64,000 bases of DNA from a virus, in IMG/VR virus record IMGVR_UViG_3300029793_000467; one strand, 5' to 3'. The position numbers and the translations under genes are program-made. The notes beneath the pieces were generated by a model. It worked only from the letters and a program-made list of their open reading frames with translations. It had not been told where the DNA came from and did no database searches. This document shows, in pieces, positions 2,388 through 62,570 of the stretch. Position 1 is the stretch's first letter. Each line of letters begins with the position of its first letter.

Positions 2388-2410
2388 TGTGGTTGATTCC
2401 AGTATAACAA
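2388..2410 (-). promoter_or_regulatory. conserved promoter element (weak variant)
   Basis: TTATACTGGAATCAA in gene orientation. Confidence 0.35.
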
Positions 2411-2419
2411 GGAAATGTT

Positions 2420-2824
2420 TCAAATTTGGCTTTTACATAAATTCCGACGCCAACGGGCGAAATATATCCAAGCCGGAATGTCGGCGGAAACCGCCGCCAC
2501 ACCAATCAAGCCAGTCAGAATAGGTCGGACAATCATATCCTCTGGTTCCGAAACCGGCATGAACCAGAGAAGCGGCACCGTTCCAGCCAAGAAAACAATA
2601 CTTACGGCGAGCATGACGAATAGCATGACCTGTTCTATGGGATGTTTGGGTTTATCTGTTTTAGTCCGCGACCTTTTGATTTTTGGCGGCTTACCGTCAT
2701 GCTTGCCATGTCTGCCATACATGGTGGTCTCCCTGTTGTCTGGATGGCTGGACGCCATGCGTGTGATGGACGCGGGGTCGATGACGGTGGTGAGTTCCCC
2801 GGTGTCTTCTGATTGTGGTTTCAA
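2420..2824 (-). CDS. hypothetical membrane protein (TTG start)
   Basis: The conserved promoter element (2841-2863) lies inside the long ORF. An AGGGAG RBS sits 5 nt before TTG 2824. Two TM helices. Confidence 0.45.
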   Translation of the reverse strand: MKPQSEDTGELTTVIDPASITRMASSHPDNRETTMYGRHGKHDGKPPKIKRSRTKTDKPKHPIEQVMLFVMLAVSIVFLAGTVPLLWFMPVSEPEDMIVRPILTGLIGVAAVSADIPAWIYFARWRRNLCKSQI

Positions 2825-2840
2825 AAATACTCCCTCTCTA

Positions 2841-2863
2841 TGTAGATAATCCCAGTATAGTAC
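2841..2863 (-). promoter_or_regulatory. conserved promoter element
   Basis: rc TACTATACTGGGATTATCTACA. Confidence 0.45.
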
Positions 2864-2970
2864 GTGATAGTACATAGTTTTTTCTCGCGCATCACAAAAC
2901 GGATAGTCAAAGTCGATAACAGAAAGGAGCGTGTCCAAAAACGCGCTCCTTAAAAACAAGCCAACAGACA

Positions 2971-3471
2971 CTACCAGTCGATGAGCATGTCGCCGTGGAC
3001 GATTTCTCTCGCATACTTAATCAGGTCGGCGTCCGATTCGACACTGGGGTCGTCCACCAGCCTTTTCAGAGTGTGTAACACCGCTTGCTCGTATCCTTCC
3101 CAAAACTCTTTCGGAAGATATTTGCTCCAAAAATATTCCCCCATGAAAGCCACGCAGGGTTTGCACATTCGGACTATTGGAATATGCTCTTTCGGAGCGT
3201 TCTCGTCTCCCATGGTGAGGAATTCCAGATAAACGTACTTTTTATCCGCTTTGAAGAACAGAATGTTCTCTTTTGCTGGATTAGGGTCGCCTTCCAGTAC
3301 GAAGTCCGGGTCTCCGAAATGCATCCCGAATACGATTCCAGCATCGTAATTGTTGAGCCGATTGACGCAATCGCGGAGTGCTGAACTGTTGCATCGACAC
3401 CAGTTCGGATAATCCGATAACGACACCTCGCATCTGGTACATGCGGGGCATTCTTTTTCTTCGTTTTCCAA
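2971..3471 (-). CDS. Cys-rich hypothetical protein (CPACTRC..C.C, CKPC)
   Basis: ORF 2971..3504. TTG 3471 with an AGAGGA RBS avoids overlap with the upstream gene. Multiple CxxC pairs suggest a zinc-binding protein. Confidence 0.4.
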   Translation of the reverse strand: MENEEKECPACTRCEVSLSDYPNWCRCNSSALRDCVNRLNNYDAGIVFGMHFGDPDFVLEGDPNPAKENILFFKADKKYVYLEFLTMGDENAPKEHIPIVRMCKPCVAFMGEYFWSKYLPKEFWEGYEQAVLHTLKRLVDDPSVESDADLIKYAREIVHGDMLIDW

Positions 3472-3487
3472 TATTATTCCTCTCTTT

Positions 3488-4486
3488 TTAGATAGCCGTT
3501 TCAAGCAGAACCGGGGGAAGGCACTGTTTCCAATTGACTCGCAACGCGCTCGTCAAATCGTTCATGTTCAATGCGAACAGTCCGGAATTCATCAAACCGT
3601 TCAATTCCACGATTGACACTTCACCGTTGATAAGACACAGGTCGAGCGTGTACGCGCCGTAACCGCAGTGGGCGAACATGCGTCCGGCTCGCGTGGCGAA
3701 CTCACGGTATCGTTCCGCCAATTCCGGTCTGAGTTCAACATTCTTAACGGTGGTGTCGTCACGATGCTTCTGCATTTGAGGGTCGAATCTCGTATGCATG
3801 TTGTCGATTGGTGTTTTCAATCCGATATTGCCAGCGCCGCAGACAGGCTGGTTGCCGACCATGAACATGCGATACTCGTATTGGATATCGACATTCTCCT
3901 GAATAAGCAGAGCATTCGGGTCATCATCCGCACGAACAAACGCCCAACCTCCCCACTCCTGCACCTGCTGTTCAAGCTCGTCAAGATTAGTTCCGGAGAT
4001 TTTCAAATTCGGTAGCATTTTGGCTTGGTTCATGAATTTGATGAAGAACGACGAGACACCGTCCTTAATAAGAGAAGCGAACGCATGTTTGATGTCATCC
4101 TCGTAGATGGAACTGAGTTTCGTCTTCCGATGCATGAGCATGCGCACGTTGGGATTGATGGCGTAACGGTCGGCATGAGATGGGTCTGCATACTGGTCGA
4201 TTGGCGGCATGTTCAACACTTGTCCGAAGTGCGGTAATCCGATTAGCCTCTTCGAGTCGAGGTCGGTTTTCCCATGCACTCGGACTATGGCGTCCTCACC
4301 TAGATTGCGGACGCCCCAGTAGAGTCGGGAACAGGTTTCAATCCAATCCTCACGGTCTCCACCTTCCGGCTTGACCTTGCCGACGTACTTTTCCCATATT
4401 TGAATGTAATAGTTAGGGATGCCGGTCATGTCATCGGGGCATTTGACGGGTGGAATGGAAATGACCCACGGTTTCCTATCGGTCAA
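3488..4486 (-). CDS. ATP-grasp-like protein
   Basis: 332 aa. The C-terminal region (CGYGAYTLDLCLINGEVSIVELNGLMNSGLF) resembles an ATP-grasp catalytic tail. TTG start with an AAGGAG RBS. Confidence 0.4.
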   Translation of the reverse strand: MTDRKPWVISIPPVKCPDDMTGIPNYYIQIWEKYVGKVKPEGGDREDWIETCSRLYWGVRNLGEDAIVRVHGKTDLDSKRLIGLPHFGQVLNMPPIDQYADPSHADRYAINPNVRMLMHRKTKLSSIYEDDIKHAFASLIKDGVSSFFIKFMNQAKMLPNLKISGTNLDELEQQVQEWGGWAFVRADDDPNALLIQENVDIQYEYRMFMVGNQPVCGAGNIGLKTPIDNMHTRFDPQMQKHRDDTTVKNVELRPELAERYREFATRAGRMFAHCGYGAYTLDLCLINGEVSIVELNGLMNSGLFALNMNDLTSALRVNWKQCLPPVLLETAI

Positions 4487-4680
4487 TCTATAGCTCCTTT
4501 TCGAGTATTGTTGGCGTATTCGATTCCAGCCTTGAAAGCTTCCACCGCGTAGTCGTGGAGTATTTCAAGCTGTCTGAGACTGAACCCATCCTCCAAATGC
4601 GGGGACAGGTCGGGTAGGTTTTCTTCTATCGTCTCTTCCGACATGTTGGAGATATTCAATTCGCCACTTCTTTGTTTCAT
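4483..4680 (-). CDS. small acidic hypothetical protein
   Basis: The start is uncertain (ATG 4680 or 4644). The promoter element at 4690-4710 lies inside the longer ORF. Confidence 0.3.
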   Translation of the reverse strand: MKQRSGELNISNMSEETIEENLPDLSPHLEDGFSLRQLEILHDYAVEAFKAGIEYANNTRKGAID

Positions 4681-4689
4681 CCGGCGTTT

Positions 4690-4710
4690 GTAAACATCCC
4701 CAGTATAACA
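4690..4710 (-). promoter_or_regulatory. conserved promoter element
   Basis: rc TGTTATACTGGGGATGTTTACA. Confidence 0.45.
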
Positions 4711-4779: not shown

Positions 4780-5835
4780 TCAAAGACCGTGCTTGGTCAG
4801 ATACTTGTTGTTGATGATTTTAAAGCAACGGTTGCTGCCAAGCTCGTTGTACAGGTCGTCGCTCAACCGTTCGCCCGCTTTCGCATGCCAGACGATTCCT
4901 TCGTCCAACAAGTCGCGGGTCACGTTGCCTCTCAGACCATCCACTTTGGCAATCATGTCCATCACATCGCCGGTCGGCTTCCACTCGGTCTCGTCTAACA
5001 GTGGGACGGCGTTGTCAAGCATGGCTTTCGGCCAATCCCTACGGTCGAGTTTCATGTTGTCACGCCATACGGCGAACACGAATGGACGATAGGACGCCAG
5101 CTTCAACCTGTTGCCGTTGACACTTGGGCCGCACAGCTCGAACTGGCAGACCATGCCTTTCTCCAACGCGTCAACCAATCCGGTTTTCACCGCCACCTGC
5201 ATGTTCGTGCATTCCGGCTTCAACTCCCAATTGCGAGAGTAGACGTGAACCGTATCATCCATATCACGGTAGATTGTGGTGCTGGTGCCGTCCACCTTCA
5301 CGGTCGGAGTCCACGCAATCCGCCTGATTTCATCCCAATACGCGGTGAGATTCTGCACTCGTGTGGCGTCGGACTTGGAGCATGGCGCGTTGAAAGCGCC
5401 AATCATGTCACCGCCTTTCAATGGTGGCAGTTCTTCATACTTCCACACGTCCGCCTGTAAGGTGATATCAGTGCCGATGGGAGTGTCCTCCGGTACGCCA
5501 ATCGTTGAAAGCGGCATGACTAGTCCTTGACTGTACACTCCGCGCAGTCGCGCGGTACGTAGCACGTGTCCGGTGATTTCCTTCTCTTCGCCGGTAATCG
5601 TGTTGGACACGGGAACGGTACGCTGACCACGCTTCTGCAAGTCCGTATAGCGTGGGTCGTTGGCTGGAAGCATGGAATCGATTTCGAAATATGCCACATG
5701 GTCGCCGGGCTTTAATCCCATGTCCTTGCCTACTACGACAATCCATCCGCCAATGCGAACCTTCTCGATACGGTCTGCGTTCTCAATGGGATACACTCCC
5801 TCAATCTTTTGAACGCTCACCATTTTTCTAACCAT
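4780..5835 (-). CDS. ATP-dependent RNA ligase-like (nucleotidyltransferase KxDG motif)
   Basis: 351 aa. KVDG (ligase motif I) is embedded in TPTVKVDGTS. The overall architecture resembles the Rnl/DRB0094 RNA-ligase family. AAGGAAAAC RBS. Confidence 0.5.
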   Translation of the reverse strand: MVRKMVSVQKIEGVYPIENADRIEKVRIGGWIVVVGKDMGLKPGDHVAYFEIDSMLPANDPRYTDLQKRGQRTVPVSNTITGEEKEITGHVLRTARLRGVYSQGLVMPLSTIGVPEDTPIGTDITLQADVWKYEELPPLKGGDMIGAFNAPCSKSDATRVQNLTAYWDEIRRIAWTPTVKVDGTSTTIYRDMDDTVHVYSRNWELKPECTNMQVAVKTGLVDALEKGMVCQFELCGPSVNGNRLKLASYRPFVFAVWRDNMKLDRRDWPKAMLDNAVPLLDETEWKPTGDVMDMIAKVDGLRGNVTRDLLDEGIVWHAKAGERLSDDLYNELGSNRCFKIINNKYLTKHGL

Positions 5836-6785: not shown

Positions 6786-6793
6786 AAAACGGT

Positions 6794-7066: not shown

Positions 7067-7290
7067 GATTCGTTCTCGCCATCTTTATCGAGTTCATTGC
7101 GAACGATTTCCAAAGCCATGTCGATAGCCTCGTCCCAGCCTTTCCGCCATCCGATGACAAACGCTTCCGCCGGGGCGACTTTACCAAGCTTCGATTGGAG
7201 CAATGAGTGGACGGCCCTTTCTTTCAGTTCGTTTTCGTTCAAACTTTCTGCTCCTTTCCCTTGTCGGCCATCAGTGCGACGGCCAACCAT
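7063..7290 (-). CDS. hypothetical protein (75 aa)
   Basis: ORF. Overlaps the upstream gene by ~50 nt, so the start is uncertain. Confidence 0.3.
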   Translation of the reverse strand: MVGRRTDGRQGKGAESLNENELKERAVHSLLQSKLGKVAPAEAFVIGWRKGWDEAIDMALEIVRNELDKDGENES

Positions 7291-7865
7291 GCCGGTAGTG
7301 GTGTATTCTGTAATTTTTGTGCTTCCTTCCGGGTTTCAGCCACGCGAAGGAACGGCTCCTTGTCTTCGGTGAGCATGTCGCCCGCCATTTTGACCGTTTT
7401 CTTCGAAGTGGATAGAAGCTGTTCGGCCTTCTGGTCTCCGCCCCTCCACATGATTTGGAATCTAAGAGTTGCCCACAACCATGGATTGTCCCAAGAGTCA
7501 TTCGGAATATCGTTGGCTGCGAACAGGTGGAGCAAATGTCGGACACGTCGGGTCAGGCTGGCTTTGCTTGCGGAATATTTGCCGCGTTTGGAACCAGAGA
7601 GGAACGCTTTCATTCCTGTGTCGAACGCGTCTGGATTGGTGTGTTGGAGCACGCTCCCGGACAGGACTGTATCGTTCACGGTTTCGGCGCTGGTCAGATG
7701 CCATCCGTTGCAGATAGGGCAATGGTATGCGCGTTTCTCAGTGTGTTTCGGATTTCCTCGTCCTTTGATGACAGCCAATGCGAGTTGGGCTTCCCTTTTG
7801 TTGGGGTAGCGGACTTTGCTTCGGTTCAGAGTGCATTTACCTGCGGTCTTGTATAAGCTGTGCAT
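7239..7865 (-). CDS. hypothetical protein with CPICNGWH zinc-finger-like motif
   Basis: 208 aa. Preceded by the 40-bp conserved element and a mini-ORF. Confidence 0.45.
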   Translation of the reverse strand: MHSLYKTAGKCTLNRSKVRYPNKREAQLALAVIKGRGNPKHTEKRAYHCPICNGWHLTSAETVNDTVLSGSVLQHTNPDAFDTGMKAFLSGSKRGKYSASKASLTRRVRHLLHLFAANDIPNDSWDNPWLWATLRFQIMWRGGDQKAEQLLSTSKKTVKMAGDMLTEDKEPFLRVAETRKEAQKLQNTPLPAWLAVALMADKGKEQKV

Positions 7866-7993: not shown

Positions 7994-8020
7994 TATGTGA
8001 ACACCCCCAGTATAACATAA
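7994..8020 (-). promoter_or_regulatory. conserved promoter element
   Basis: rc TGTTATACTGGGGGTGTTCACATA. Confidence 0.5.
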
Positions 8021-9222: not shown

Positions 9223-9807
9223 TTAGCGGCCAAATTCCTCTCTGCGCATGGCTTCATACAGCATGTTCTCCTGAGTTGCGTCGGACAAGGCACGATGCTC
9301 TTCCACGTCACCGATACCATAGTCGCGGATAAGCACGGCAACCTTATGGCTTGGCTTTTCGGGATGGATTTTCCGGCTCATTTCCAACGTGTCCACGAAC
9401 CGGTGTGGAAAGAAGAACATTCCACCGTTCACGGTTTTCATGGCCGCGTCCAAGAAACTCAAATCGAATGACGCGTTATGCGCCATGATGATGGTTCGCG
9501 GGCCAAGCCACTTGTCGAATCGGATGATGGCTTGGCTTACGTCGGGTTGTCCGATGACCATGCTGTCGTTGATTCCGGTGAGCGAGGTGATGTATTCGGG
9601 GATTGGCTGGTGTGGGTCAATCAGTTGCTCGTATCTGTCCACGAGTTTCCCGCCATGGATTTTCACAGCTCCGATTTCAATGAGTTTGGCCCCGTTTTCA
9701 GGTTTGAAACCGGTGGTTTCGGTATCCAAGACCACGTAATCGTAGAGTGGTGTCTTCATTGGGTCGATTCTTCTGGGGTCTCGACTTTGGTATCTGTCCC
9801 AGCTCAT
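9223..9807 (-). CDS. DnaQ-like 3'-5' exonuclease (DEDDh, Pol III epsilon family)
   Basis: Exo I motif YVVLDTETTG, Exo II motif HNASFDLSFL and Exo III motif HRALSDA are all present. GAGGAG RBS. Confidence 0.8.
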   Translation of the reverse strand: MSWDRYQSRDPRRIDPMKTPLYDYVVLDTETTGFKPENGAKLIEIGAVKIHGGKLVDRYEQLIDPHQPIPEYITSLTGINDSMVIGQPDVSQAIIRFDKWLGPRTIIMAHNASFDLSFLDAAMKTVNGGMFFFPHRFVDTLEMSRKIHPEKPSHKVAVLIRDYGIGDVEEHRALSDATQENMLYEAMRREEFGR

Positions 9808-9833
9808 AGTGTGGTCTCCTCGGGTAAGTGAAT

Positions 9834-9856
9834 GTGTGGACGTTTCTAGTATAACG
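9834..9856 (-). promoter_or_regulatory. conserved promoter element
   Basis: rc CGTTATACTAGAAACGTCCACACA. Confidence 0.5.
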
Positions 9857-10559: not shown

Positions 10560-10931
10560 CTATTCTTCGCTTTCGCGCAGGTCGATTATCGGAATGTGGG
10601 TATCGGTTGAATAGTGGACGAAATAGGGGTCGATTGTCCTATGCCGCCAGCTGACGCCACCTTCCACCGGCCAAGCCAGCCAGCTTATGCCGTCCAAATA
10701 GTTCAGAATGCTGACGTGAGCAATCCAACGGCACCATCTTGCAGGGCATATCACGTCGAACATGGGAGTATCCTCGGTTCCCGGTCGGCAGGAATGCCGT
10801 TGCCAAGAACGCAGATACACGCGATAAAGCGCATAGGAATCATCTGTTGGCAGTTCCTCAGTGTCGAACACCGCGCGAGTTGGGTGGTCATCGAAGAGGA
10901 TTCGTTTGCCGAATTTAGTTGCTTGATTCAA
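10560..10931 (-). CDS. hypothetical protein (TTG start, AAGGAGG RBS)
   Basis: The promoter element 10965-10993 lies inside the long ORF. AAGGAGG sits 5 nt before TTG 10931. Confidence 0.4.
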   Translation of the reverse strand: MNQATKFGKRILFDDHPTRAVFDTEELPTDDSYALYRVYLRSWQRHSCRPGTEDTPMFDVICPARWCRWIAHVSILNYLDGISWLAWPVEGGVSWRHRTIDPYFVHYSTDTHIPIIDLRESEE

Positions 10932-10964
10932 TGCGTCCTCCTTTTTGGTTTTTGTCTTTGTTTT

Positions 10965-10993
10965 TGTGAACAATCCCACTATAACACAAGGGG
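10965..10993 (-). promoter_or_regulatory. conserved promoter element
   Basis: rc TGTGTTATAGTGGGATTGTTCACA. Confidence 0.5.
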
Positions 10994-11016
10994 GTAGAAA
11001 AACGCAACACACGAAC

Positions 11017-11472
11017 CTAAGCCAGCGTCCCGTTAAAAAAGAACTCCCTCTTCCCAACCCGATACAAACCCACATACGAACCGGACAGACGAAAACCAAA
11101 AAGACGGAAGAAACCCTCATACACCGGTAATAATTCCTCCGGCACTGTCACCAGAGGGAACCGTTCATCCAGCAATCCCAGTGAATATTCGACCAGTGCG
11201 GAACCGACCCCTCGATTTCGGAAAGCCTTGGAAACATACAAGGTGCAAATCTTCCGTTCAGACGGATTTCTCTTGAGAACGCAAAACCCCGTCAACTCAC
11301 CGTTTATGCGGGCTAAAAGAATCGCGCGGCCTTTCCCCAATGAGGGGAGAACCGTGCGGTCGAACCAAATATCGAAGCCGGGATAATACGTTCGGATTAT
11401 CCTCGGAATAGGAATAGAAACCGCAGTTTGAGCGTCCCGGACTAAGTCAATCCTTAAAGAACTCAAACACAT
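11017..11472 (-). CDS. GNAT family N-acetyltransferase
   Basis: Acetyl-CoA binding motif in VSKAFRNRGVGSALVEY (R-x-x-G-x-G/A). Confidence 0.65.
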   Translation of the reverse strand: MCLSSLRIDLVRDAQTAVSIPIPRIIRTYYPGFDIWFDRTVLPSLGKGRAILLARINGELTGFCVLKRNPSERKICTLYVSKAFRNRGVGSALVEYSLGLLDERFPLVTVPEELLPVYEGFFRLFGFRLSGSYVGLYRVGKREFFFNGTLA

Positions 11473-11692
11473 GGAAATCCGTCACGCACTTGACATTGAC
11501 ATGAGTCGTATTATCCGGCCAAACATACAAGACCGGCATGTAACCGGGCAGTTCCCGAACAACGAGATTACTGAAACCGTCCAAGTAGAGGGTTCCGGCC
11601 ATGGGTTTGCCGTTCCAGTTGAAAATTGCGGGCTTGCCTTCGAGTTCCGTCCAGTTGATTCCGTCTTGGTAGGGGAGTTCTTTTAAGGTCAT
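11447..11692 (-). CDS. hypothetical protein (81 aa)
   Basis: AAGGAAAAC RBS, with a degenerate promoter element upstream. Confidence 0.4.
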   Translation of the reverse strand: MTLKELPYQDGINWTELEGKPAIFNWNGKPMAGTLYLDGFSNLVVRELPGYMPVLYVWPDNTTHVNVKCVTDFHVFEFFKD

Positions 11693-11708
11693 CGGTTTTC
11701 CTTCTTTG

Positions 11709-11736
11709 GTGTGGACTATCTCACTCTAACACAACC
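11709..11736 (-). promoter_or_regulatory. conserved promoter element (degenerate)
   Basis: rc TGTGTTAGAGTGAGATAGTCCACAC. Lies directly next to the IS insertion. Confidence 0.3.
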
Positions 11737-11739: not shown

Positions 11740-13380
11740 GTGGCGTGAAGAAGAAAAATCCCCTTCCCCACCGTTTTGCCGTGAGGGTGCCCCCGCCTTT
11801 AGGCGCGGGGAGGAATCACAGCTTTCTTTTTTCCATATTACGCGTAATGTGGTATTATTAGAAATATGAGCCAGAAAGTCGTGTTGGAGCGTGTGACGTT
11901 GGACGGTGCCAAACCGTTCATCGGTTATACCGGCCAGCATGACCCATGTTCCGAAAAGCTTTACGCGAATACCGGCAGTCAGGCGATGGAATGGCTTTGT
12001 GACGCTTGGCGTTACCGGTTCAACCAGTTAAGGTCGAACCGTTGCAAATACGGTAAGGACAAGACTCTCATCCCCATTGGCGGCACACCCGACACTCGTA
12101 GCGTCAGCCAGTCCCGAAGCGAATGTTCTTGGCTAACCGCAGTGCCTTCCCTTATCTTGGAATCCCCGACCAGAATCGAACGGGTCGAATGGTTCACCTC
12201 CGTGAAACGACGCAAGACCCTATTAAGCAAACGGTTGAAACCGGGGAGAATGCCCCGTTTCAAATCGTATAAGCGTGACGGGCAACGTTTCGTCTGCTGG
12301 TACAACGGGGGACGCAACGCCGTATACCGTCGAGTCAACCGCAACCACGGCATCATAACCATCACCGGACAGAACCCCAAAGGCATGTCATTGCCGGGCG
12401 AACCGTTACGCTACCGTATCCTCCTGCACGTGCGCGTCAGCCAGCCGATACGCGAATACACGGCCATCCAAGTGGATTGGACGAACCGTACCGTCGTGTT
12501 CAACAACATTCCAACGCCCATCAGTCATGAGCCGACCGGCAGGGCGGTCGGCATCGACCGTGGATGCGTGCATGCCGCCGCCGACTCCGACGGACGGTTC
12601 ATGGACCTGCCGAAAGACAGGTTGAAGGCCATCGACCGTGAAATCCGGAAGCGTCAGAAAAGCCAAGCCCGTAGGGTCAAGACAGCCGGATATTCCAGTG
12701 AGAAAGAATACGCGAATAGTGGCAGAACCAGCCGCGCATATTGGAAGACCCGGCTGGAAATCACAAAACTGCATTCGAAATCCGAACGTATATTGGATGA
12801 CGTGTACCAAAAATACACGACCCAACTCGTGTGTGACAATGATTTGATTGTGTTGGAGAACCTACGATTAGCGAACATGAGCCGACGCAACAAGCCTGTT
12901 CCCGACCCGTTGCATGAAGGCAGGTATCTTCACAATGGTCAGGTGGCGAAACGTGGACTCAACCGTAGCCTCCGACAGGCGAGCATGGGAAGACTGTCCT
13001 CCATGCTCGCATACAAGACCAAGCTTGCCGACGGCGTGGGCATGATACTCGTCAACCCGGCCTACACAAGCCAGACATGCAGTCAATGCGGGTATGTGGC
13101 GAAAGAAAACCGCGAGAGCCAAGCGGTGTTCATTTGCAAAAAATGCTCGTACAAGACGAACGCTGACGTGAACGCGGCGAAAAACATTCTCAAACGAGGA
13201 TTGGACACGCTCGCCGTCACGTCGGAAAACCTGTGGGGCGCGGACGGCACCCCGGTCGAACAGGGACGTAAGACCAACGGAAACGCTACACGCGAATCCG
13301 TGGCAGTCTCTTAGAAACCAGAACCTCTCCTACCGCAAAACGATAGGAGGAATCCCCCGGTTTAAACCGTGGGGAGGACG
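11740..13380 (+). mobile_element. IS200/IS605-family TnpB-only (IS1341-like) insertion sequence
   Basis: A single tnpB gene is flanked by subterminal hairpins (11789-11810 and 13354-13375). A GGAGGAATC word sits next to both hairpins. No TnpA gene is present. The insertion breaks the minus-strand gene array. Confidence 0.65.
11866..13314 (+). CDS. tnpB: TnpB (OrfB_IS605) RNA-guided nuclease-like transposon protein
   Basis: 482 aa. C-terminal RuvC-like region with a zinc finger (TSQTCSQCG...CKKC) and NADVNAAKNILKRG. Confidence 0.85.
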   Translation: MSQKVVLERVTLDGAKPFIGYTGQHDPCSEKLYANTGSQAMEWLCDAWRYRFNQLRSNRCKYGKDKTLIPIGGTPDTRSVSQSRSECSWLTAVPSLILESPTRIERVEWFTSVKRRKTLLSKRLKPGRMPRFKSYKRDGQRFVCWYNGGRNAVYRRVNRNHGIITITGQNPKGMSLPGEPLRYRILLHVRVSQPIREYTAIQVDWTNRTVVFNNIPTPISHEPTGRAVGIDRGCVHAAADSDGRFMDLPKDRLKAIDREIRKRQKSQARRVKTAGYSSEKEYANSGRTSRAYWKTRLEITKLHSKSERILDDVYQKYTTQLVCDNDLIVLENLRLANMSRRNKPVPDPLHEGRYLHNGQVAKRGLNRSLRQASMGRLSSMLAYKTKLADGVGMILVNPAYTSQTCSQCGYVAKENRESQAVFICKKCSYKTNADVNAAKNILKRGLDTLAVTSENLWGADGTPVEQGRKTNGNATRESVAVS

Positions 13381-13623
13381 TCAACATTCGTCCAACAGTT
13401 GCGTAGCGCTCATGTCGAGCTTCTTAAGGGTTTCGGTTGTAATGTCAGCGTATTCCAAGGATTCTTCATTCAAGTATGCGATTGTTCTTGGGGCTACCGC
13501 ATACTTGTCGGGGTTGGTGTCGAGTCTTTTCAGAAACGCCAGTACGGTCTCTTTGTCGTGCTCGTTCAGTTCAGGGTCGTTTTTGGCTGAGGTGGTCAGA
13601 TACTCATAGTAGCCGCTGTCCAT
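13381..13623 (-). CDS. hypothetical protein (80 aa)
   Basis: Acidic ORF. Confidence 0.4.
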   Translation of the reverse strand: MDSGYYEYLTTSAKNDPELNEHDKETVLAFLKRLDTNPDKYAVAPRTIAYLNEESLEYADITTETLKKLDMSATQLLDEC

Positions 13624-13837: not shown

Positions 13838-14092
13838 TCAGGAGAACACTTTCACGGACTGGAATTCTTCGCCCATTTCGTTGCCGGATTCGCATTGGTT
13901 GACAATAACCCATGGTTTGACGCCGGGGAGGTGGAGGCTATCGATTCTCACGTACATGTCGGGTTGTGCCGTGCGATATTCCAGTATGCCTTCGATGGTC
14001 TCGCCGGTTTTGGTGACTGCGATGCACTTGTGGCCTTCCAAGTTTTGGGGGAGGGTGTTGTGCCAGTTGATTTCTGTGGTGGTGTTGCTCAT
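13838..14092 (-). CDS. hypothetical protein (84 aa)
   Basis: AAGGAG RBS. Promoter element at 14125-14150. Confidence 0.45.
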   Translation of the reverse strand: MSNTTTEINWHNTLPQNLEGHKCIAVTKTGETIEGILEYRTAQPDMYVRIDSLHLPGVKPWVIVNQCESGNEMGEEFQSVKVFS

Positions 14093-14124: not shown

Positions 14125-14150
14125 TGTGTGAACAATTCCAGTATATATGA
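14125..14150 (-). promoter_or_regulatory. conserved promoter element
   Basis: rc TATATACTGGAATTGTTCACACAG. Confidence 0.55.
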
Positions 14151-14605: not shown

Positions 14606-14968
14606 CTACAATTCCCTCATGGCCTTGTCTAAATCGGACACAATCGCGTCATACAGTCCGTCAACGTTCAACGATTCCAGCTTGTGCGACGGCAAATCCA
14701 CGGGAGTGTATTCCCCGTCGTCGAAAGTCCAATGCTCGACCGAAACCGTGTATACTCCTCCACTCCAACGGTAGGAATGTTTGCCGTTATGTTGCGAGTC
14801 TGCCACAAGGTAGTATTCGAACATCTTGCCCATGTATGGGCATTGGAATGCGACTTCGATTCCGTCTCCGAAGATGGCGTGGGTGGCGTGTGCGCCGGTC
14901 ACGTATGGGATTTTGACGAGCTTGTCAATGAGTTTCCGGTAGGTGTCTTCGCTGATTTTCGAGTACAT
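14606..14968 (-). CDS. hypothetical protein (120 aa)
   Basis: Promoter element at 15006-15032. Confidence 0.45.
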   Translation of the reverse strand: MYSKISEDTYRKLIDKLVKIPYVTGAHATHAIFGDGIEVAFQCPYMGKMFEYYLVADSQHNGKHSYRWSGGVYTVSVEHWTFDDGEYTPVDLPSHKLESLNVDGLYDAIVSDLDKAMREL

Positions 14969-15005: not shown

Positions 15006-15032
15006 TGTGTGGACAATCCCAGTATATCATAT
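15006..15032 (-). promoter_or_regulatory. conserved promoter element
   Basis: rc TGATATACTGGGATTGTCCACACA. Confidence 0.55.
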
Positions 15033-16340: not shown

Positions 16341-16366
16341 TGTGTGAACAATTCCAGTATAGCATA
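16341..16366 (-). promoter_or_regulatory. conserved promoter element
   Basis: rc TGCTATACTGGAATTGTTCACACA. Confidence 0.55.
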
Positions 16367-52263: not shown

Positions 52264-52294
52264 GTTATACTAGAAGCGTTCACACAATAACAGA
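52264..52294 (+). promoter_or_regulatory. conserved promoter element
   Basis: TGTTATACTAGAAGCGTTCACACA. Confidence 0.55.
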
Positions 52295-52317: not shown

Positions 52318-52689
52318 ATGAGCAACTACTTCAACAGCATCGAACATCAAATCAACCTCATGCTCGACAGGGAACAAGACCTCCAAGACGAACAGGAACA
52401 GCGCCTACGGGATATTCACGACGGCATCGGAGACTACGTGCTGTTGCCCGAAGGCGACCCGTGGAACATCGATGACTACGAGCAAGACCCACAGCCCACC
52501 AACGTCAACAACACTTGCAGTCACGGACTCTATGTTGACGAAGGTGTGAAATCTGGAACCATGTATCATCTCAACCCTGACCTCGGACTGTGGGCGGCTT
52601 GTGACGACTACGAGGACATAGAAAAAATGGTCAGGGAAGGCAAAACGTTCACCCAGCCCATCGACGATTACGATTCGAAGCTCGCCTGA
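52318..52689 (+). CDS. hypothetical acidic protein (123 aa)
   Basis: Promoter element at 52264-52294. Confidence 0.45.
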   Translation: MSNYFNSIEHQINLMLDREQDLQDEQEQRLRDIHDGIGDYVLLPEGDPWNIDDYEQDPQPTNVNNTCSHGLYVDEGVKSGTMYHLNPDLGLWAACDDYEDIEKMVREGKTFTQPIDDYDSKLA

Positions 52690-52731: not shown

Positions 52732-52760
52732 CGTTATAGTGGAACCAGTCACAAACAAGG
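52732..52760 (+). promoter_or_regulatory. conserved promoter element
   Basis: CGTTATAGTGGAACCAGTCACAAA. Confidence 0.5.
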
Positions 52761-54209: not shown

Positions 54210-54653
54210 TTGGACGAACAATCCTCCACCCAACGTTTCCATATCCTCATGGCCGGTATCAGCGAAGGTGAGACCAGAATCCTCTACAACATCGAAAAAG
54301 GAAGGTTGACCGCCGACATCCTCAAAAGCAACATCGGCAGACGACTGCTGGATGCCGGACTCATCCGACGTAACGGACAATCAGCCCCATCCCTCACCAA
54401 GGATGGCATGCGCCTCGTATCCATGCTCGCCCAAGGCGAGGCAGACCGTCCAATCCGACTATACGAGCGCAACAGCGAAACACTGCTCCGCCAAGCCGGA
54501 CAGGGAACGGCCAACGCATACAAGGCCGGTTTCGAAAACGCCGCCGTCGAACTGCTGAACGACAAGCTGGTTCACCTCGACATCGCAACAGGCGCTCTGA
54601 CGCTGCTCCCTGCGGGACGAGAACTATTGGAACGACTGGAGCAGACGTCTTGA
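54210..54653 (+). CDS. hypothetical protein (147 aa)
   Basis: ORF. Confidence 0.4.
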   Translation: MDEQSSTQRFHILMAGISEGETRILYNIEKGRLTADILKSNIGRRLLDAGLIRRNGQSAPSLTKDGMRLVSMLAQGEADRPIRLYERNSETLLRQAGQGTANAYKAGFENAAVELLNDKLVHLDIATGALTLLPAGRELLERLEQTS

Positions 54654-55606
54654 AGCCTTGGTTCCAAGACGACACGCTGACGCTCTATCTAGGCGACGCA
54701 TCGTCCGTGCTTTCCGATTTGCCCGACGGAAGCGTCGATTGTATTGTTACCAGTCCGCCGTACTATGGGTTGCGCCAATACACGGATTCCGAACTGGAAA
54801 TCGGGCGCGAACCCACGCCCGACGGCTATGTGGAAGACCTCAGCAAAGTATTCCGCGAATGCAGACGAATCCTAGCCGATGACGGCACATTCTGGCTGAA
54901 CTTGGGTGACACGTACTCCACGCCGAACCTATGGGACGGCGGCGACGGGTCGGAGAACAGCATCGGATTGCACGGGCATGTGCAGAAGCCGAACGGCAGG
55001 AAACGTCCAGACCGTCCGGCGAAGAACCTGCTCGGCATCCCGTGGAGAGTGGCGTTCGCCTTGCAGGACGAGGGGTGGATACTGCGTTCGGATATTATTT
55101 GGGGGAAAACCAATCCCATGCCGGAAAGCGTTAAAGACCGTCCAAGCAAAAGCTACGAGCATATTTTCCTATTCTCCAAAACCGAAAAATACTATTACGA
55201 CTACCAGTCCGTAAGACAACGGCAGTCGGAGAAAACCATCGAGGATTTAGCCCACCGGCATACGTTCGGCAACAAAAGCACATACGGTGGCGTCCGCGAG
55301 GATTTGGGAAGAGACCGTAGGGAATACGTCTCCCCGGACGGCAGGCGGAACCTACGCGACGTGTGGATGCTGCCGACCCGCCCGTATGCGGGAGCGCATT
55401 TTGCGACTTTCCCGGTGGATATTCCCCTCACATGCATTCAAGCCGGTTGCAAGCCGGGCGGCGTGACGCTCGACCCGTTCAACGGTTCCGGCACCACCGG
55501 TTTGGCGGCTGCGATGCTGGGGCGCAGGTATGTCGGAGTCGATTTAAACGAACAATATTTGAAATTGAGTCTGCAAGACCGTCTGAATCAGCCCGCGTTC
55601 GTATAG
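54650..55606 (+). CDS. DNA methyltransferase (N6-adenine/N4-cytosine, beta class), orphan
   Basis: Motif IV TSPPYY lies upstream of motif I DPFNGSGTTG. No restriction endonuclease partner is present nearby. Confidence 0.85.
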   Translation: MKPWFQDDTLTLYLGDASSVLSDLPDGSVDCIVTSPPYYGLRQYTDSELEIGREPTPDGYVEDLSKVFRECRRILADDGTFWLNLGDTYSTPNLWDGGDGSENSIGLHGHVQKPNGRKRPDRPAKNLLGIPWRVAFALQDEGWILRSDIIWGKTNPMPESVKDRPSKSYEHIFLFSKTEKYYYDYQSVRQRQSEKTIEDLAHRHTFGNKSTYGGVREDLGRDRREYVSPDGRRNLRDVWMLPTRPYAGAHFATFPVDIPLTCIQAGCKPGGVTLDPFNGSGTTGLAAAMLGRRYVGVDLNEQYLKLSLQDRLNQPAFV

Positions 55607-55892: not shown

Positions 55893-55920
55893 ACTATAAT
55901 GGGATTGTTCACACAAAAAC
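55893..55920 (+). promoter_or_regulatory. conserved promoter element
   Basis: ACTATAATGGGATTGTTCACACA. Confidence 0.55.
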
Positions 55921-55945: not shown

Positions 55946-56668
55946 ATGTCTGGCGAAAAAACCAATCCCAAATCACCGGAATACAAGAAAACCATCGACA
56001 CCACCGGCTTCGGACTCACCTGCGTCACGGAATATGGATTCGACAACGATGGACTGTTCCACCACGAATACGCCTACACTCACGGAAACAGAAAGGCCGT
56101 CGTCCAAGTGACGGGAAGCCGGAAGCCCGCCGACTGGCACACCCGCCAAAGCGCCTACGCATCCTACTATGAGGACGGACGTCAGGTAGGGAAGACCCGC
56201 GCCTACAACATCTACGAAAACGCGCAAATCAAAGCCGTCCGATGGGTCATGGGCTATGGTTCCGACAGCAAGGCCGACGAAGCATGCCGTGCGATGCGAT
56301 TGGCGAAAAGCCGACGAAACCAGCGGACATGCCAGAGAATCCCCGAAGCGCTCCGTATGGAAGTGGACGGATTGGCCAACACTCTCGGGTTGAGGATTCA
56401 CGGCAACGAGGACAACGAAACCGTCGAAACGTTCGTGGACGCCTATATCGCCGCCGCCGAAGACAATGGTCTTGTCGAGCTGAGGGAACGACAGCACGGG
56501 TACGAGACCTCAATCACCGCATGGCTGGATGGGGACGCCGGACGAAAGACGGAGGACGCTCCCGACTGGGAGAAGTTCAAGGCGACCGCCACGGCAATCG
56601 TCCCGCTCTATCAGGAGTGCAGACGCAAGGCTGCGGAAAGCGTCGGACTCGCTGAAAAACTGGATTGA
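55946..56668 (+). CDS. hypothetical protein (240 aa)
   Basis: Promoter element at 55893-55920. Confidence 0.45.
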   Translation: MSGEKTNPKSPEYKKTIDTTGFGLTCVTEYGFDNDGLFHHEYAYTHGNRKAVVQVTGSRKPADWHTRQSAYASYYEDGRQVGKTRAYNIYENAQIKAVRWVMGYGSDSKADEACRAMRLAKSRRNQRTCQRIPEALRMEVDGLANTLGLRIHGNEDNETVETFVDAYIAAAEDNGLVELRERQHGYETSITAWLDGDAGRKTEDAPDWEKFKATATAIVPLYQECRRKAAESVGLAEKLD

Positions 56669-57087
56669 GGACAACCTTTCGGTTCGACCGCCAACGTGGG
56701 AGCATCTTCCAGAATCGACCTGTAGTCCTCCAACACTCCGACCGTCACGTTCAAATCGACGGCCACGAGGAACGCTTCGCCCTCGTATACTCGTTCGGAC
56801 TGTATGTAGTCGAACGGATTGATGAGCAGCGTCGCGGTCTCCTTGCGCACATGCGTTTCGGCCTTGTCGTCGTATTGGCTCTGGCAACGGGCGTCCCCAT
56901 GTGTCCAGTGGAGCAGTTCGTGGGCCAGCGTGCATCGTTTTTGCCGTTCGTTCAGCCGTGGGTCGATGATGATGATGTGCGTCAACTCGTCGTATACGCC
57001 GTTGATGTTTTCAGGCAGTTCCTCTTCGAATATGTGTGGTGCCGGTCGGGTGAGTTCCACGGCGCGTCGCATGCACTCGTAGCTCAT
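56611..57087 (-). CDS. ImmA/IrrE-family metallopeptidase (HEXXH)
   Basis: LAHELLHWTHGD inside a DUF955-like region. The Arg-rich N-terminal part of the long ORF was excluded. Confidence 0.55.
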   Translation of the reverse strand: MSYECMRRAVELTRPAPHIFEEELPENINGVYDELTHIIIIDPRLNERQKRCTLAHELLHWTHGDARCQSQYDDKAETHVRKETATLLINPFDYIQSERVYEGEAFLVAVDLNVTVGVLEDYRSILEDAPTLAVEPKGCPQSSFSASPTLSAALRLHS

Positions 57088-57131
57088 ACGCCTGTCGAGG
57101 GTGACGTTTCTGCCGTCCAATGGGGGATGGT

Positions 57132-57512
57132 TCAGCAATCGTCCTCGCTTTCCGCTTCCGCCTGTTTGTTCGGGTCGTGGTTCGCGGCCAAGGTGAGGTC
57201 TCCCGCGTTGATTCTGCGTAGTACGTCTTGTAGCTGTTGTTCCACGATAGAGGGTTTTGTCTGGTAGCCGTTTTGTCCGGCGATTAGCTCCTCTGGCTCC
57301 ATGTCCCATGCGTGGGCGAGTGTTTCGATGTCGGCGGGGAGCCATTCGACGGTTTCGTTGTATCGTGTGGTGACGTAACTGGGGCTTTTGCCTAGTTGCC
57401 GTGCGATGTCCCGTGCGGAGAGCCGTCGGATTCCGGCTTCCGCTAGGATGCGTTGGTTGATTCTTCTGTTGAATTCGCTGGTTTGGTTTTTTCTTTTTCC
57501 CATGTTTTCCAT
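57132..57512 (-). CDS. XRE-family HTH transcriptional regulator (ImmR-like)
   Basis: LSARDIARQLGKSPSYVTTRYN resembles an HTH_3 motif. Lies upstream of the ImmA-like gene. Confidence 0.55.
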   Translation of the reverse strand: MENMGKRKNQTSEFNRRINQRILAEAGIRRLSARDIARQLGKSPSYVTTRYNETVEWLPADIETLAHAWDMEPEELIAGQNGYQTKPSIVEQQLQDVLRRINAGDLTLAANHDPNKQAEAESEDDC

Positions 57513-57550
57513 GATAACTGATTTTTAACATGAAACGCGTGGTTTTAGAT

Positions 57551-57578: not shown

Positions 57579-57737
57579 CTGTAATTACAAACACTTGTTC
57601 ACCTGAAGAAACAGGAAGGTTAATGTATAACATGAGTCACGACAAGGCACGGGCGCTCTTGTGGATGGTCAGATAGACACCCCAAGAAGCCCGTTCCACA
57701 TACCCCGCCTCAAAATTGGAGGGACACACCCCCAATT

Positions 57738-57762
57738 TTGTGAATACGCCCAGTATGACTAG
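57738..57762 (-). promoter_or_regulatory. conserved promoter element variant, 230 nt upstream of ImmR-like gene
   Basis: rc GTCATACTGGGCGTATTCACAAA, followed by the palindromic hairpin CAAAATTGGGGG/CCTCCAATTTTG at 57711-57740. Confidence 0.4.
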
Positions 57763-57824
57763 AATAAAAAAACGTCCACACAATATAAGCCAGACTCCAC
57801 ACAGGCCAGACCAAAAGGAATGTT

Positions 57825-60067: not shown

Positions 60068-60465
60068 CCGACGTCACCACCAAGCTCATTCATGACACTT
60101 TCATCCAGAACCGTCCCGATAAGGTAGGCGAACAGGAAGCGGAAGAACTGTTCAACCATTGGCTCGAAGTCCACGGATTCCAGCCGGAGGAACAGCCCAT
60201 CGCACCAGCCGGATTCGAGTATGAGACCGTCAAAACCAAGGAGGATTCCACACCATCCTCCGACGATTTGGACGCCATCGCCCTCGCATCCGACAATGCC
60301 ACCAATTCCGCCGCAATGATTTCCGACGTGATGGATTCTCTTCCTGAAAGCACTCAGGAAGCGCTTGCGTGCGCGTTGAACGACTTCGACTGTGCCGCCG
60401 AGCATCTGCACAGGTTGCTCGACAAGTACAATTACAAGCCTTTGGAAGAAAGGGAGGAAGAGTGA
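60064..60465 (+). CDS. hypothetical acidic protein (133 aa)
   Basis: Coupled ORF. Confidence 0.45.
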   Translation: MTDVTTKLIHDTFIQNRPDKVGEQEAEELFNHWLEVHGFQPEEQPIAPAGFEYETVKTKEDSTPSSDDLDAIALASDNATNSAAMISDVMDSLPESTQEALACALNDFDCAAEHLHRLLDKYNYKPLEEREEE

Positions 60466-60521
60466 AGTAGCGCAAGAACACAAAACCAATCCACACACAG
60501 TAAGAAACCAGAAGGAAAGAT

Positions 60522-62465
60522 TTGAAAAACAAACTCCGAGGGAAAATCCCCTTCATCGCGGCAGTGTCCGCACTATCCATGCTCGCCTCCGCAAACGTGG
60601 CATTGGCCGCAGAGGTCGGCAACCCAATCATCGTGGACAAAACCAACATGTTCACAGCTGATGAAACCGTTGACCTGTTGGGCGGCGACTTGGGCGAGGC
60701 GGCGAACTTCGGTCTCGTCGGCTTCGACTCCGTCCGTCTGAACGCCCACACGAACAGTAATATCGCCACCGAGCACGCCTATATTGGCGCGGCCTTCGGC
60801 AATCATGCCAACGGTGTGGACGAGCCGGAAGTCAGCTACATGGACAAGGTTGACGGCAATATCAACGTCAATCTGCCCGCCGACTCCAAGATTGTCTTCG
60901 GACAGTCAAACATCATCGGACAGACCGACAATGGCAACAGTTGGACGGTGAACGGGAACAAGCTGGAAATGCAGACCAGTGGAAGCCTCCCGAAGTCCGA
61001 ACGAGTGCTCAAGGATTCCAAGACCGTCAAATATCTTGATTTGAAGTCCATGGAAAAGAGCATGACCAGCCTGTCCGCCAAGTGGTCGAAAGCTTCGGAA
61101 TCCAACGCGACCCATGATTTCTCCGACATGAACAAGCGTCACATCGACGCCAACGGTGATGTCGCTCATATCAACATCGACGCGAAAGAACTGCAAGGTA
61201 ATCGTGTGACCGCCACGTTGGGGGAGAAGACCCGTCTCGTCGTGAATGTTGACGCCGAAGGTGCGGACAATATCACTCTGCCCCAATTGGACGTGGACGG
61301 TATCAATCACGCCGAATACGCCAAGTGGACGGACAAGGGTGTTATTTACAATCTGACCGACTCCAAAGCCAAGGACGGGCAGTATCACGGCAACGTCGGC
61401 ACCGCTGGCGCATCCTCTTCCGTGATTCTCGCGCCGGAAGCCAACGTGGACGCGTCGCAGAACGTTGAAGGGCAGATTATCGCCAAGAACGTGACCATCG
61501 GCGGCGAATTCCACCGCAACAGCGTCAACGTTCCCGCCACCCGCCACGTCGAGGTGAAGCTGGACGGTCAGGACAAGACCGAGACCACTCCGTTCGTCGT
61601 GCCCCAGCCCGCTAAAGACCATTACCGTTTCACCGTCTGGACCACCAACCCGGACGGAACCGGCGACTCCTACAAGCCGGGCGAGACCGTGACTTCGATT
61701 CCGGAGAACACCACCCTGTACCCGCAGTGGGAGGCGAAGCATTTGCTTCGCTATGATACGAACGGTGGCAACGGCAAGTATGTGGATTCCGACCTGCCGT
61801 CAGATGTGTCTGACACGGTTCCAACCCGCGACGGTTACGAGTTCGACGGTTGGATGATTGATGGAGTCAAGGTCGATTCCGGCGATAGCGTCGAGGACAA
61901 CGGCTCCGACGTGACTGTGGTCGCGCAGTGGACGCCGGTCAAGCAGGATGTGACCCCGACTAAGCCGGAAACCCCGAAGGACGACAACAAGACCGACAAC
62001 GGTGGCAACGGTTCTGAGATTCCGAAGGATGATAAGACGGATACTTCATCCAAGGATGACAACAAGACCGACGATTTCAAGCCGAACACTCCGAAGGACG
62101 ATATCAATACTGATACTCCTTCCAAGGGTGATGATTCCAAGCCGGAAACCCCGAAGGATGATACGGACAAGAACGATACTCCGTCAAAGGATGATTCCGA
62201 CAAGTCCGACAATGATACGAAGGTTCCATCCGACGATAAGAGCGATGTGAACACTCCGACCAGCGATAAGACCGCCGATACTGGTAAGACCGATACCGGC
62301 AAGAAGACTGTGGGCGCCAAGAACAATACTCAGGCCGTTCAACAGGACGGTCAGGGCTTGGCTACCACCGGCGTGGCTGTTGGCGTCATCGCGGTCGCGG
62401 TCATTGTGCTTGCCGCCGCCGGTGCAATCCTCTCCGTCGCAAAACGACATGAGGGTAACCGCTGA
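60522..62465 (+). CDS. cell-wall-anchored surface protein (LAxTG sortase signal) with T-P-K-D-D repeat stalk
   Basis: TTG start and a signal peptide. C-terminal LATTG motif, a TM helix and a KRHEGNR tail. Tandem (E/N)TPKDD-type repeats. Confidence 0.65.
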   Translation: MKNKLRGKIPFIAAVSALSMLASANVALAAEVGNPIIVDKTNMFTADETVDLLGGDLGEAANFGLVGFDSVRLNAHTNSNIATEHAYIGAAFGNHANGVDEPEVSYMDKVDGNINVNLPADSKIVFGQSNIIGQTDNGNSWTVNGNKLEMQTSGSLPKSERVLKDSKTVKYLDLKSMEKSMTSLSAKWSKASESNATHDFSDMNKRHIDANGDVAHINIDAKELQGNRVTATLGEKTRLVVNVDAEGADNITLPQLDVDGINHAEYAKWTDKGVIYNLTDSKAKDGQYHGNVGTAGASSSVILAPEANVDASQNVEGQIIAKNVTIGGEFHRNSVNVPATRHVEVKLDGQDKTETTPFVVPQPAKDHYRFTVWTTNPDGTGDSYKPGETVTSIPENTTLYPQWEAKHLLRYDTNGGNGKYVDSDLPSDVSDTVPTRDGYEFDGWMIDGVKVDSGDSVEDNGSDVTVVAQWTPVKQDVTPTKPETPKDDNKTDNGGNGSEIPKDDKTDTSSKDDNKTDDFKPNTPKDDINTDTPSKGDDSKPETPKDDTDKNDTPSKDDSDKSDNDTKVPSDDKSDVNTPTSDKTADTGKTDTGKKTVGAKNNTQAVQQDGQGLATTGVAVGVIAVAVIVLAAAGAILSVAKRHEGNR

Positions 62466-62504
62466 CATTACCTCTCTATTCGATAGGGAGATAATGTGAC
62501 TCCA

Positions 62505-62538
62505 ATCCCGCCGTCTTTTTGATGGCGGGATTTTTTTA
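62505..62538 (+). terminator. rho-independent terminator
   Basis: ATCCCGCC..GGCGGGAT followed by T8. Confidence 0.65.
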
Positions 62539-62542
62539 CCTA

Positions 62543-62570
62543 TGTTATACTGGCAGTGTTCACAAAATCG
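62543..62570 (+). promoter_or_regulatory. conserved promoter element
   Basis: TGTTATACTGGCAGTGTTCACAAA. Confidence 0.55.

Follow-up and report, generated by a model that had tools for sequence, protein, structure and literature searches.

The 64,000-nucleotide IMG/VR virus record IMGVR_UViG_3300029793_000467, referred to here in its whole length as the window, carries 25 copies of a composite promoter element, TGn-TATACT-GGAATT-GTTCACACA, for which the number expected by chance is approximately zero. The element is best regarded as a lineage variant, in a new and divergent lineage, of a motif already published for the conjugative megaplasmid pMP7017, and not as a new kind of element; the window itself is part of a metagenomic, lower-GC relative of pMP7017. 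Comparative analysis of the sequences documents the anatomy of the element, its homology to the pMP7017 motif, selection on its conserved block, and its lineage dialects. New in this analysis are the more than 50 IMG/VR contigs of this family, three dialects of the element, the essentially invariant spacing between its hexamer and its downstream box, the retention of the box amid randomized flanks, and the unstructured leader.

The assignment to the pMP7017 family follows from the identity of an ATPase, from synteny, and from matches of an insertion sequence (IS) and of DnaB. The 886-amino-acid (aa) ATPase, which is like those of type IV secretion systems, is 59% identical over 99% of its length to proteins of the Bifidobacterium breve megaplasmid pMP7017 and of five megaplasmids from B. 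longum; its more distant matches are type IV secretion proteins encoded by further actinobacterial plasmids. Approximately 25 orthologs with ∼40 to 65% identity are syntenic between 29.5 and 63 kb of the window and 55 to 11 kb of pMP7017, including ParA, a RepA-like protein, DnaB, and an ImmR-like/ImmA-like pair, and the GC contents are 0.53 and 0.57, respectively. The TnpB-type IS (11767-13394, with a 482-aa open reading frame [ORF] at 11866-13314) is 94% identical to an IS of a B. longum megaplasmid, and contigs of up to 159 kb from gut metagenomes encode a DnaB identical to that of the window. Among the collections searched, the lineage was found solely in metagenome assemblies and IMG/VR, and we infer a Bifidobacterium host. 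A phage origin was rejected, as 10 kb of the window had no match in the INPHARED phage collection. Over the genes compared, the window is near-identical to part of IMGVR_UViG_3300045988_177018 (locus L034). A 159-kb relative (L005, ENA NODE_81) matches the window at 97 to 98% identity as far as position 23716; from there on it has, in the place of the small-gene array, a cluster that encodes a SpaA pilin along with a sortase and a large adhesin.

The 21-mer TATACTGGAATTGTTCACACA has 16 matches at ≤3 mismatches across the window and none in 100 dinucleotide-preserving shuffles, and a position weight matrix (PWM) trained on these 16 matches finds 24 sites at a threshold of ≥10 bits, compared with 0.15 in shuffles. 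The original prediction, which had claimed at least 24 near-identical promoter elements, agrees well with this count: all 23 positions that it listed were recovered, 22 by the PWM and 11709 as a degenerate copy, and the copies at 1149-1169 (minus strand) and 18517-18537 (plus strand) are additions. Its anatomy, a -10 followed by 15 conserved nucleotides with one copy per transcription unit, is correct, whereas its ∼40 separate transcription units are an overcount, there being 25 copies. The direction of the element, said always to be that of the gene, holds for the 24 copies that face a same-strand start codon, each preceded by an AGGAG-type ribosome-binding site (RBS), and fails for the antisense copy at 18517 (plus strand). 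With the genes called as here, 19 of the 25 copies fall in the noncoding 15% of the window; the remaining six overlap the 3′ ends of upstream genes, overlong 5′ ORF extensions, or dubious small ORFs, and copies do often lie within spurious longer ORFs, such as 16843-17325, 10560-11120, and 2420-2971. The box GTYCACAHA lies exactly 6 nucleotides (nt) past a -10-like hexamer in 18 of its 19 occurrences in the window. Boxes without a -10 number one in the window and nine in pMP7017, compared with 2.6 and 6.6 by chance, and free-standing operators were rejected because these unlinked boxes are at or near the chance level. Only the copies at 22347 and 23180 are visibly paralogous, with related sequences in the 40 nt upstream.

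The pMP7017 motif was described as a 34-bp sequence overlapping the -10, of which 19 copies were counted, predicted to be driving 56 genes, or 24% of the plasmid; it was reported as present in pMP7017 homologs and absent from bifidobacterial chromosomes, and was thought "likely a transcription factor binding site" (Dineen et al. 2024, PMC10832533). In the published steady-state transcriptome sequencing (RNA-seq), with the whole plasmid present, the best motif copies are among the most highly transcribed genes (PMC10832533), and we found no later paper that resolves the factor for this motif. Our scan finds 29 copies of the pMP7017 element, ATATGT-TATACT-GAATAT-GTCCACATA, which continues into a conserved A-rich leader and RBS. 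The two elements share a homologous plasmid backbone, a TATACT -10, a 6-nt spacing to a GTYCACAYA box, dozens of copies, and a position ahead of the RBS and start codon. They differ in the discriminator (GGAATT in the window and GAATAT in pMP7017) and at two of nine box positions (GTTCACACA and GTCCACATA, although both variants occur in both plasmids), and the window has weaker forms of the upstream ATATGT block and of the conserved leader. The search of related plasmids proposed in the original prediction yields the homologous pMP7017 block; the exact 21-mer of the window occurs once, as a chance match in an unrelated metagenome-assembled genome, among 185,579 GTDB species genomes. Genes with a motif copy on both plasmids are those for an exonuclease and for a protein with a winged helix-turn-helix (HTH) and HEAT repeats, and the pairs 52318/34788 and 29594/147969 (window/pMP7017); the remaining driven genes are mostly lineage specific.

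A degenerate pattern scan of IMG/VR returned at least 115 loci on about 60 contigs, of which many measure 100 to 217 kb, and among the matches listed there are at least 354 copies in at least 152 nonorthologous groups. These fall into three dialects: that of the window, TGn TATACT GGAATT GTTCACACA, at a GC content of about 0.52; that of pMP7017, ATATGT TATACT GAATAT GTCCACATA, at about 0.57; and a third, CACGTGA TAYACT GTAAYA GTCCACACA, at about 0.59. The spacing between hexamer and box is constant in essentially all 354 copies, with one extra base in a single pMP7017 copy. The dialects are distinguished by the discriminator (GGAATT, GAATAT, or GTAAYA) and by box positions 14 and 19, with T/C marking the window lineage, C/T that of pMP7017, and C/C the third. 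IMG/VR files the more than 50 contigs of this conjugative megaplasmid family as viral genomes (UViGs; loci L010-L124).

Comparison of orthologous promoters between the window and pMP7017 lineages indicates how the element has been maintained. The identity of the flanks has fallen to about 0.3 to 0.55, whereas that of the -10 is 0.94 to 1.0 and that of the box positions C-A-C-A is 0.97 to 1.0; box positions 14 and 19 are at about 0.4, with a lineage switch from T to C at one and from C to T at the other. With the flanks randomized while the -10 and box are kept, the pattern is one of purifying selection on each copy, together with change common to dozens of promoters, and not of recent copying. 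A coevolving reader is suggested by these dialect changes, which dozens of independent promoters share and which, at one of the two positions, oppose the drift in GC content. The constraint extends to positions that are not transcribed, namely, the G directly past the -10, the discriminator, and the nonessential C of TATACT, which argues for reading at the level of DNA.

Statistics for the promoter and leader were compiled over the 152 groups. TTG lies 16 to 18 nt upstream of TATACT in 66 of them, compared with 15 expected (about fourfold), and 100 have TG at the extended -10 position; the sequence upstream of the copies is T rich. Because the -35 TTG and extended -10 TG are enriched, the upstream half is predicted to be an ordinary housekeeping-sigma promoter. 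If TATACT is the -10, the conserved block covers approximately -6 to +9, with the first transcribed base assumed to be the G of the box or one close to it. Adenine makes up 48% of the leader, and a median of 26 nt separates the end of the box from the start codon. The leaders have no shared structure (mean minimum free energy, -3.6 kcal/mol; z, -0.12 relative to shuffles), which disposes of the structured form of the RNA-level leader suggested in the original prediction; an unstructured 5′ tag is possible yet weakened by the constraint reaching into nontranscribed DNA. The same folding test gave no signal for a hairpin enclosing the -10, the folding of the block itself is weak (-3.2 kcal/mol for -10 to +25), and neither a match to an Rfam family nor a tRNA gene was found in the window. 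In a terminator scan of 13 to 30 kb, terminator hairpins are common upstream of the copies, consistent with one promoter per unit. One further regularity concerns the base 4 nt before the -10 and box position 19, which in the window-type class occur as A/T in 17, A/C in 17, G/T in 5, and G/C in 29 cases (Fisher P = 0.004), and which covary in the same direction, in the complementary sense, in the pMP7017 class (P = 0.04); the idea arose from the window copies, so that the test is not fully independent. If real, this covariation suggests matched inverted arms 16 nt apart around the -10.

Our preferred reading, put forward tentatively as plausible rather than probable, is that the element is a module of promoter and operator through which a plasmid-encoded regulator would control an establishment regulon, and that this composite is private to the pMP7017 family of bifidobacterial conjugative megaplasmids. 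Host RNA polymerase would use the upstream half, with its frequent -35 TTG, extended -10 TGn, and TATACT, and the 15-nt block in fixed register, a G-led AT-rich discriminator plus the asymmetric box GTYCACAYA, would be read as DNA by a putative protein, presumably plasmid encoded and most likely a repressor acting on the start site. About 25 operons of the 64-kb window would in this way be tied into one regulon of establishment, antidefense, and accessory genes, and entry of the plasmid into a factor-free cell would give a burst of expression followed by damping. Repression is the simplest action because the site sits on the transcription start, and a plasmid-encoded regulator is favored because the element is private to the plasmid family, being absent from chromosomes according to the authors of the pMP7017 study, and because the logic of the regulon matches the p576 and R388 cases described below. 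The common operator for an element-encoded regulator, one of the options in the original prediction, is thus the best reading of the element, but the regulator itself was not found.

Several observations weigh against this reading. The steady-state RNA-seq data rank the best pMP7017 copies as highly transcribed, unlike what tight repression would give; the asymmetric box and its essentially invariant distance from the -10 across 354 copies exceed the needs of steric repression; the start site is an assumed one; and no regulator that reads the box was identified among the window and pMP7017 candidates considered. The ImmR-like HTH protein (57132-57512), with its ImmA/IrrE-like ORF, is the only repressor-type module common to the window and pMP7017, and it was rejected as the reader since its pMP7017 ortholog stands behind an unrelated 15-bp inverted repeat, without the box. 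An HTH_17 gene (21708-21887) and a 49-aa gene (21554-21703) form the end of a motif-driven operon, a position that would be expected of an autoregulated repressor on the model of Aca in anti-CRISPR operons; the p576 reg gene also has its own operator-bearing promoter (PMC8708921). Both were rejected as readers, being present in window-type contigs only among those sampled, and the 49-aa protein, called a ribbon-helix-helix (RHH) protein in the original prediction, is RHH-like by eye but has no Pfam match. The winged-HTH and HEAT-repeat protein is motif driven in both lineages and 22% identical to its pMP7017 homolog (79231-80163), and a pMP7017 WhiB-like protein was rejected for want of a homolog in the window or sampled loci. 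None of the ImmR-like, HTH_17, 49-aa, and winged-HTH/HEAT candidates combines conservation across lineages with linkage to the box in each, and no conserved family of small DNA-binding proteins was recognized in about 110 clusters of motif-driven genes from both lineages.

The same high transcription behind the best pMP7017 copies, and the invariant register to the -10, would suit a core-promoter module acting only in cis, with discriminator and initial transcribed sequence tuned for host RNA polymerase as a strong constitutive cassette that has no dedicated factor. The G/GG(G)A run immediately past the -10 resembles what is reportedly the optimum for sigma region 1.2, the extended -10 TG is common, and conservation as far as the RBS in pMP7017 is like that of a complete cassette. 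This account is possible but doubtful, as lineage switches at positions 14 and 19 and in the discriminator are hard to square with a conserved polymerase, no sequence-specific polymerase contacts are known out to +9, and the element is reported to be absent from host chromosomes (PMC10832533). A fixed distance from the -10 would also give all of the mRNAs a common 5′ end, and transcripts beginning GUYCACAYA could carry an unstructured terminal tag, read by an RNA-binding protein, an RNase, or a small RNA, or aiding stability or translation; both variable box positions are pyrimidine transitions that a G in an RNA partner would tolerate, and the leaders are short and A rich. We consider such a tag unlikely, since, besides the lack of shared leader structure, the constraint takes in the discriminator and the inside of the -10, ahead of where any transcript could start, one of the pMP7017 copies stands before a cluster of 18 tRNA genes, a noncoding antisense transcript arises from one of the window copies, and complementary sequences elsewhere on the plasmids are not above chance.

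Essentially invariant spacing and asymmetry fit equally well an element that is read by, or together with, RNA polymerase, and the ∼24-nt block TGn-TATACT-G-N5-GTYCACAYA might be read whole in the open complex by the host polymerase and a plasmid-encoded accessory protein. This would accommodate the essentially invariant spacing, the conservation of nonessential -10 positions, the high steady-state activity of consensus copies, and the covariation between the base 4 nt before the -10 and position 19, four observations that plain steric repression leaves unexplained; we nevertheless regard it as rather improbable. If true, it would make the element a private promoter class with lineage dialects, a plasmid counterpart of the appropriation of sigma by phages. 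Reading of the contiguous asymmetric block across the start site as a whole, as in T7 promoters, could alternatively fall to a dedicated plasmid sigma factor or phage-type RNA polymerase, in keeping with the conserved C in TATACT and with the classification of these elements as viral contigs in IMG/VR. The fourfold enrichment of -35 TTG (66 compared with 15) and the common TGn argue against this, and neither the annotation of the complete pMP7017 nor a Pfam scan of ∼70 of the 95 window ORFs called revealed a sigma or RNA polymerase gene; the dedicated sigma of the original prediction is accordingly disfavored, and of all the accounts this is the least likely. Scarcely more credible is an evolutionary by-product, in which a mobile promoter cassette with identical copies provides crossover points that shuffle accessory genes among related plasmids. 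Such a process may contribute. From contig to contig, the motif-driven genes vary greatly, the copies at 22347 and 23180 are recent paralogs, conservation in pMP7017 extends cassette-like to the RBS, and a box-plus-leader remnant is fused within a pMP7017 HTH gene; however, the flanks of most copies are unrelated, indicating that the copies are old and held by selection, and the constraint on the box sequence itself is left unexplained. A role of the motif as a recombination breakpoint was also rejected, as the sole synteny breakpoint examined, at window position 23716 relative to L005, falls at no motif copy.

The promoter-operator reading has partial parallels in other mobile elements. Mycobacteriophage L5 and its cluster A relatives are said to have about 25 to 30 asymmetric 13-nt stoperators bound by one element-encoded repressor, which like the present boxes belong to an actinobacterial mobile element and are strictly oriented relative to transcription; stoperators, however, lie between genes without a promoter and block elongation, whereas the window boxes are welded to the -10. 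KorA and KorB of the IncP plasmids are global plasmid repressors. In the R388 network, ArdK and other repressors give a transcriptional overshoot in new hosts through negative feedback (PMC3937220). The R388 and IncP networks share with the window short operators reiterated at many plasmid promoters, with ardC and ssb among the targets, but their operators are repeats or palindromes at variable promoter positions, there are fewer promoters per regulator, and the regulators are known. On the Bacillus plasmid p576, of the pLS20 family, EGeRS2 promoters and the autoregulated RHH repressor Reg produce a burst on entry (Val-Calvo et al. 2021, PMC8708921); there, too, a reiterated regulatory sequence with a strong promoter precedes variable establishment operons, ardC included. 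The p576 operator differs in being a dual heptamer, TTATCCCnnTTATCCC, located upstream of the -35 and sometimes also downstream, and in having four copies and a known repressor, compared with 25 or more copies in the window, a single asymmetric box fixed on the start site, and a presumed factor. Frpo-type single-stranded DNA promoters of leading regions, in which long inverted repeats fold to rebuild the -35 and -10 (PMC11541004), likewise drive antidefense and establishment genes in many small co-oriented units, but the window promoter is an ordinary duplex one. A Frpo-like single-strand promoter was rejected, as the structure between -200 and +60 was attributed to the terminators of the preceding units (in the scan of 13 to 30 kb), the only hairpins nearby.

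Most of the copies in the first 26 kb of the window are on the minus strand. At the left end, they precede the DUF3310 gene 552-1124 (TATACT GGAAACGTTCACATA at 1149-1169), gene 2094-2363 (TATACT GGAATCAACCACATT, with a weak box, at 2386-2406), a TTG-start gene inside ORF 2420-2971 (TATACT GGGATTATCTACATA at 2839-2859), and an operon of 4483-4680 and the ATP-grasp gene 3488-4486 (TATACT GGGGATGTTTACAAA at 4687-4707). Further minus-strand copies lie upstream of 7239-7865 (TATACT GGGGGTGTTCACATA at 7994-8014), of the 3′-5′ exonuclease gene 9223-9807, whose pMP7017 ortholog also has a copy (TATACT AGAAACGTCCACACA at 9833-9853), and of 10560-10931 (TATAGT GGGATTGTTCACAAA at 10963-10983). The degenerate copy TAGAGT GAGATA GTCCACACC at 11708-11728 (minus strand) is upstream of 11447-11692 and adjoined on its upstream side by the TnpB-type IS, the insertion of which may have removed its -35 region. 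Beyond the IS, consensus copies on the minus strand are upstream of 13838-14092 (14125-14145), at the head of an operon of 16052-16309 and the ArdC-like antirestriction gene 15155-16009 (16341-16361), and inside the spurious 5′ extension of ORF 16843-17325 (17193-17213), the real start being ∼26 nt past the box; between the first two, TATACT GGGATTGTCCACACA at 15006-15026 (minus strand) precedes 14606-14968.

The gene for the winged-HTH and HEAT-repeat protein (17258-18181) is preceded by TATACT GGAACTGTTCACACA at 18206-18226 (minus strand). The plus-strand copy TATACT GGAATGGTTCACATA at 18517-18537 has no downstream ORF and is antisense to minus-strand ORFs within 18511-18773; the tiny ORFs that it crosses, 18624-18773 and 18511-18627, lie behind a strong terminator (18825-18793, minus strand), and the layout of 18511-18830 recalls loci for antisense RNAs or type I toxin-antitoxin systems. 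A second plus-strand copy, TATAGT GGAACTGTTCACACA at 19188-19208 with a -35 TTGACG at 17 nt, is upstream of 19226-19489. On the minus strand, TATACT GGAAATGTCCACATA at 21488-21508 precedes 21150-21458; a consensus copy with a -35 TTGACG (22327-22347) heads the operon of 21905-22294, the HTH_17 gene, and the 49-aa gene; its paralog, a consensus copy with a -35 TTGATG (23160-23180), is upstream of 22641-23129; and a weak copy, TATAGT GGGTTTGCCCGCAAA at 25086-25106, precedes the SPFH/Band_7 gene 23691-25070.

In the part of the window syntenic with pMP7017, plus-strand copies are found upstream of 29594-29770 and then conserved backbone genes (TATACT GGAATCGTCCACAAA at 29524-29544), of 52318-52689, whose pMP7017 ortholog 34788-35150 also has a copy (TATACT AGAAGCGTTCACACA at 52266-52286), of an operon whose last gene codes for an orphan N6/N4 DNA methylase, 54650-55606 (TATAGT GGAACCAGTCACAAA at 52735-52755), of 55946-56668 (TATAAT GGGATTGTTCACACA at 55895-55915), and of 62588-63115, the last directly past a terminator hairpin (TATACT GGCAGTGTTCACAAA at 62546-62566). 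The ImmR-like gene and ImmA/IrrE-like peptidase ORF follow, after a 245-nt leader, a weak minus-strand copy, CATACT GGGCGTATTCACAAA, at 57737-57757. The promoter region of this pair (57737-57782) has two boxes in opposite orientations, a degenerate one at the usual site and a perfect GTCCACACA at 57774-57782 (plus strand), which lies over the -35 position of the 57757 promoter and is the only box in the window unlinked to a -10. A 306-aa minus-strand ORF, 56611-57531, overlaps the ImmR-like gene in another frame, and because only its C-terminal part (residues ∼157 to 264) matches IrrE/M78 peptidases, the real start of the ImmA-like gene is probably near 57100.

Judged from predicted functions, the driven set is of the establishment and antidefense type, in many small variable operons. 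The window units include the ArdC-like protein, which has an IrrE-type peptidase domain, the orphan methylase, the exonuclease, the DUF3310 and ATP-grasp proteins, the winged-HTH/HEAT, HTH_17, and 49-aa proteins, and many small acidic proteins without a family; an RNA ligase gene (4780-5835) lies within the same array, with no particular copy assigned to it. The pMP7017 set adds ssb, a methylase, DUF2786, cas genes, the WhiB-like protein, and the tRNA region, and in both the window and pMP7017 the reiterated sequence precedes several establishment or antidefense operons. In pMP7017, a copy heads the plus-strand region 120545-125864 (L003 20545-25864) with its 18 tRNA genes, and the next copy lies directly past the cluster. 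At 107040-107085 (L003 7040-7085), a box with leader and RBS, but without a -10, lies in frame within a 217-aa XRE-type HTH gene, before an internal ATG, and an HTH gene and a gene once driven by the motif may have fused to give the annotated one. Each of the two pMP7017 CRISPR arrays (L002 17700-18470 and 22580-23560) has a motif copy ∼50 to 140 nt past it (68469 and 73557). Control akin to CRISPR interference by the pMP7017 type I-E Cascade was rejected, none of its 25 spacers being similar to the motif.

About 10% of human gut samples, for the most part those of infants or mothers, reportedly contain these megaplasmids, and a short block appears to govern roughly a quarter of the megaplasmid genes, antirestriction and establishment functions included. 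The three natural dialects provide a ready-made specificity-swap experiment, and the element might serve in the engineering of Bifidobacterium as an expression signal that is compact, portable, and possibly switchable. The identity of the reader of the block would explain how these plasmids become established in new hosts of an important gut commensal genus.

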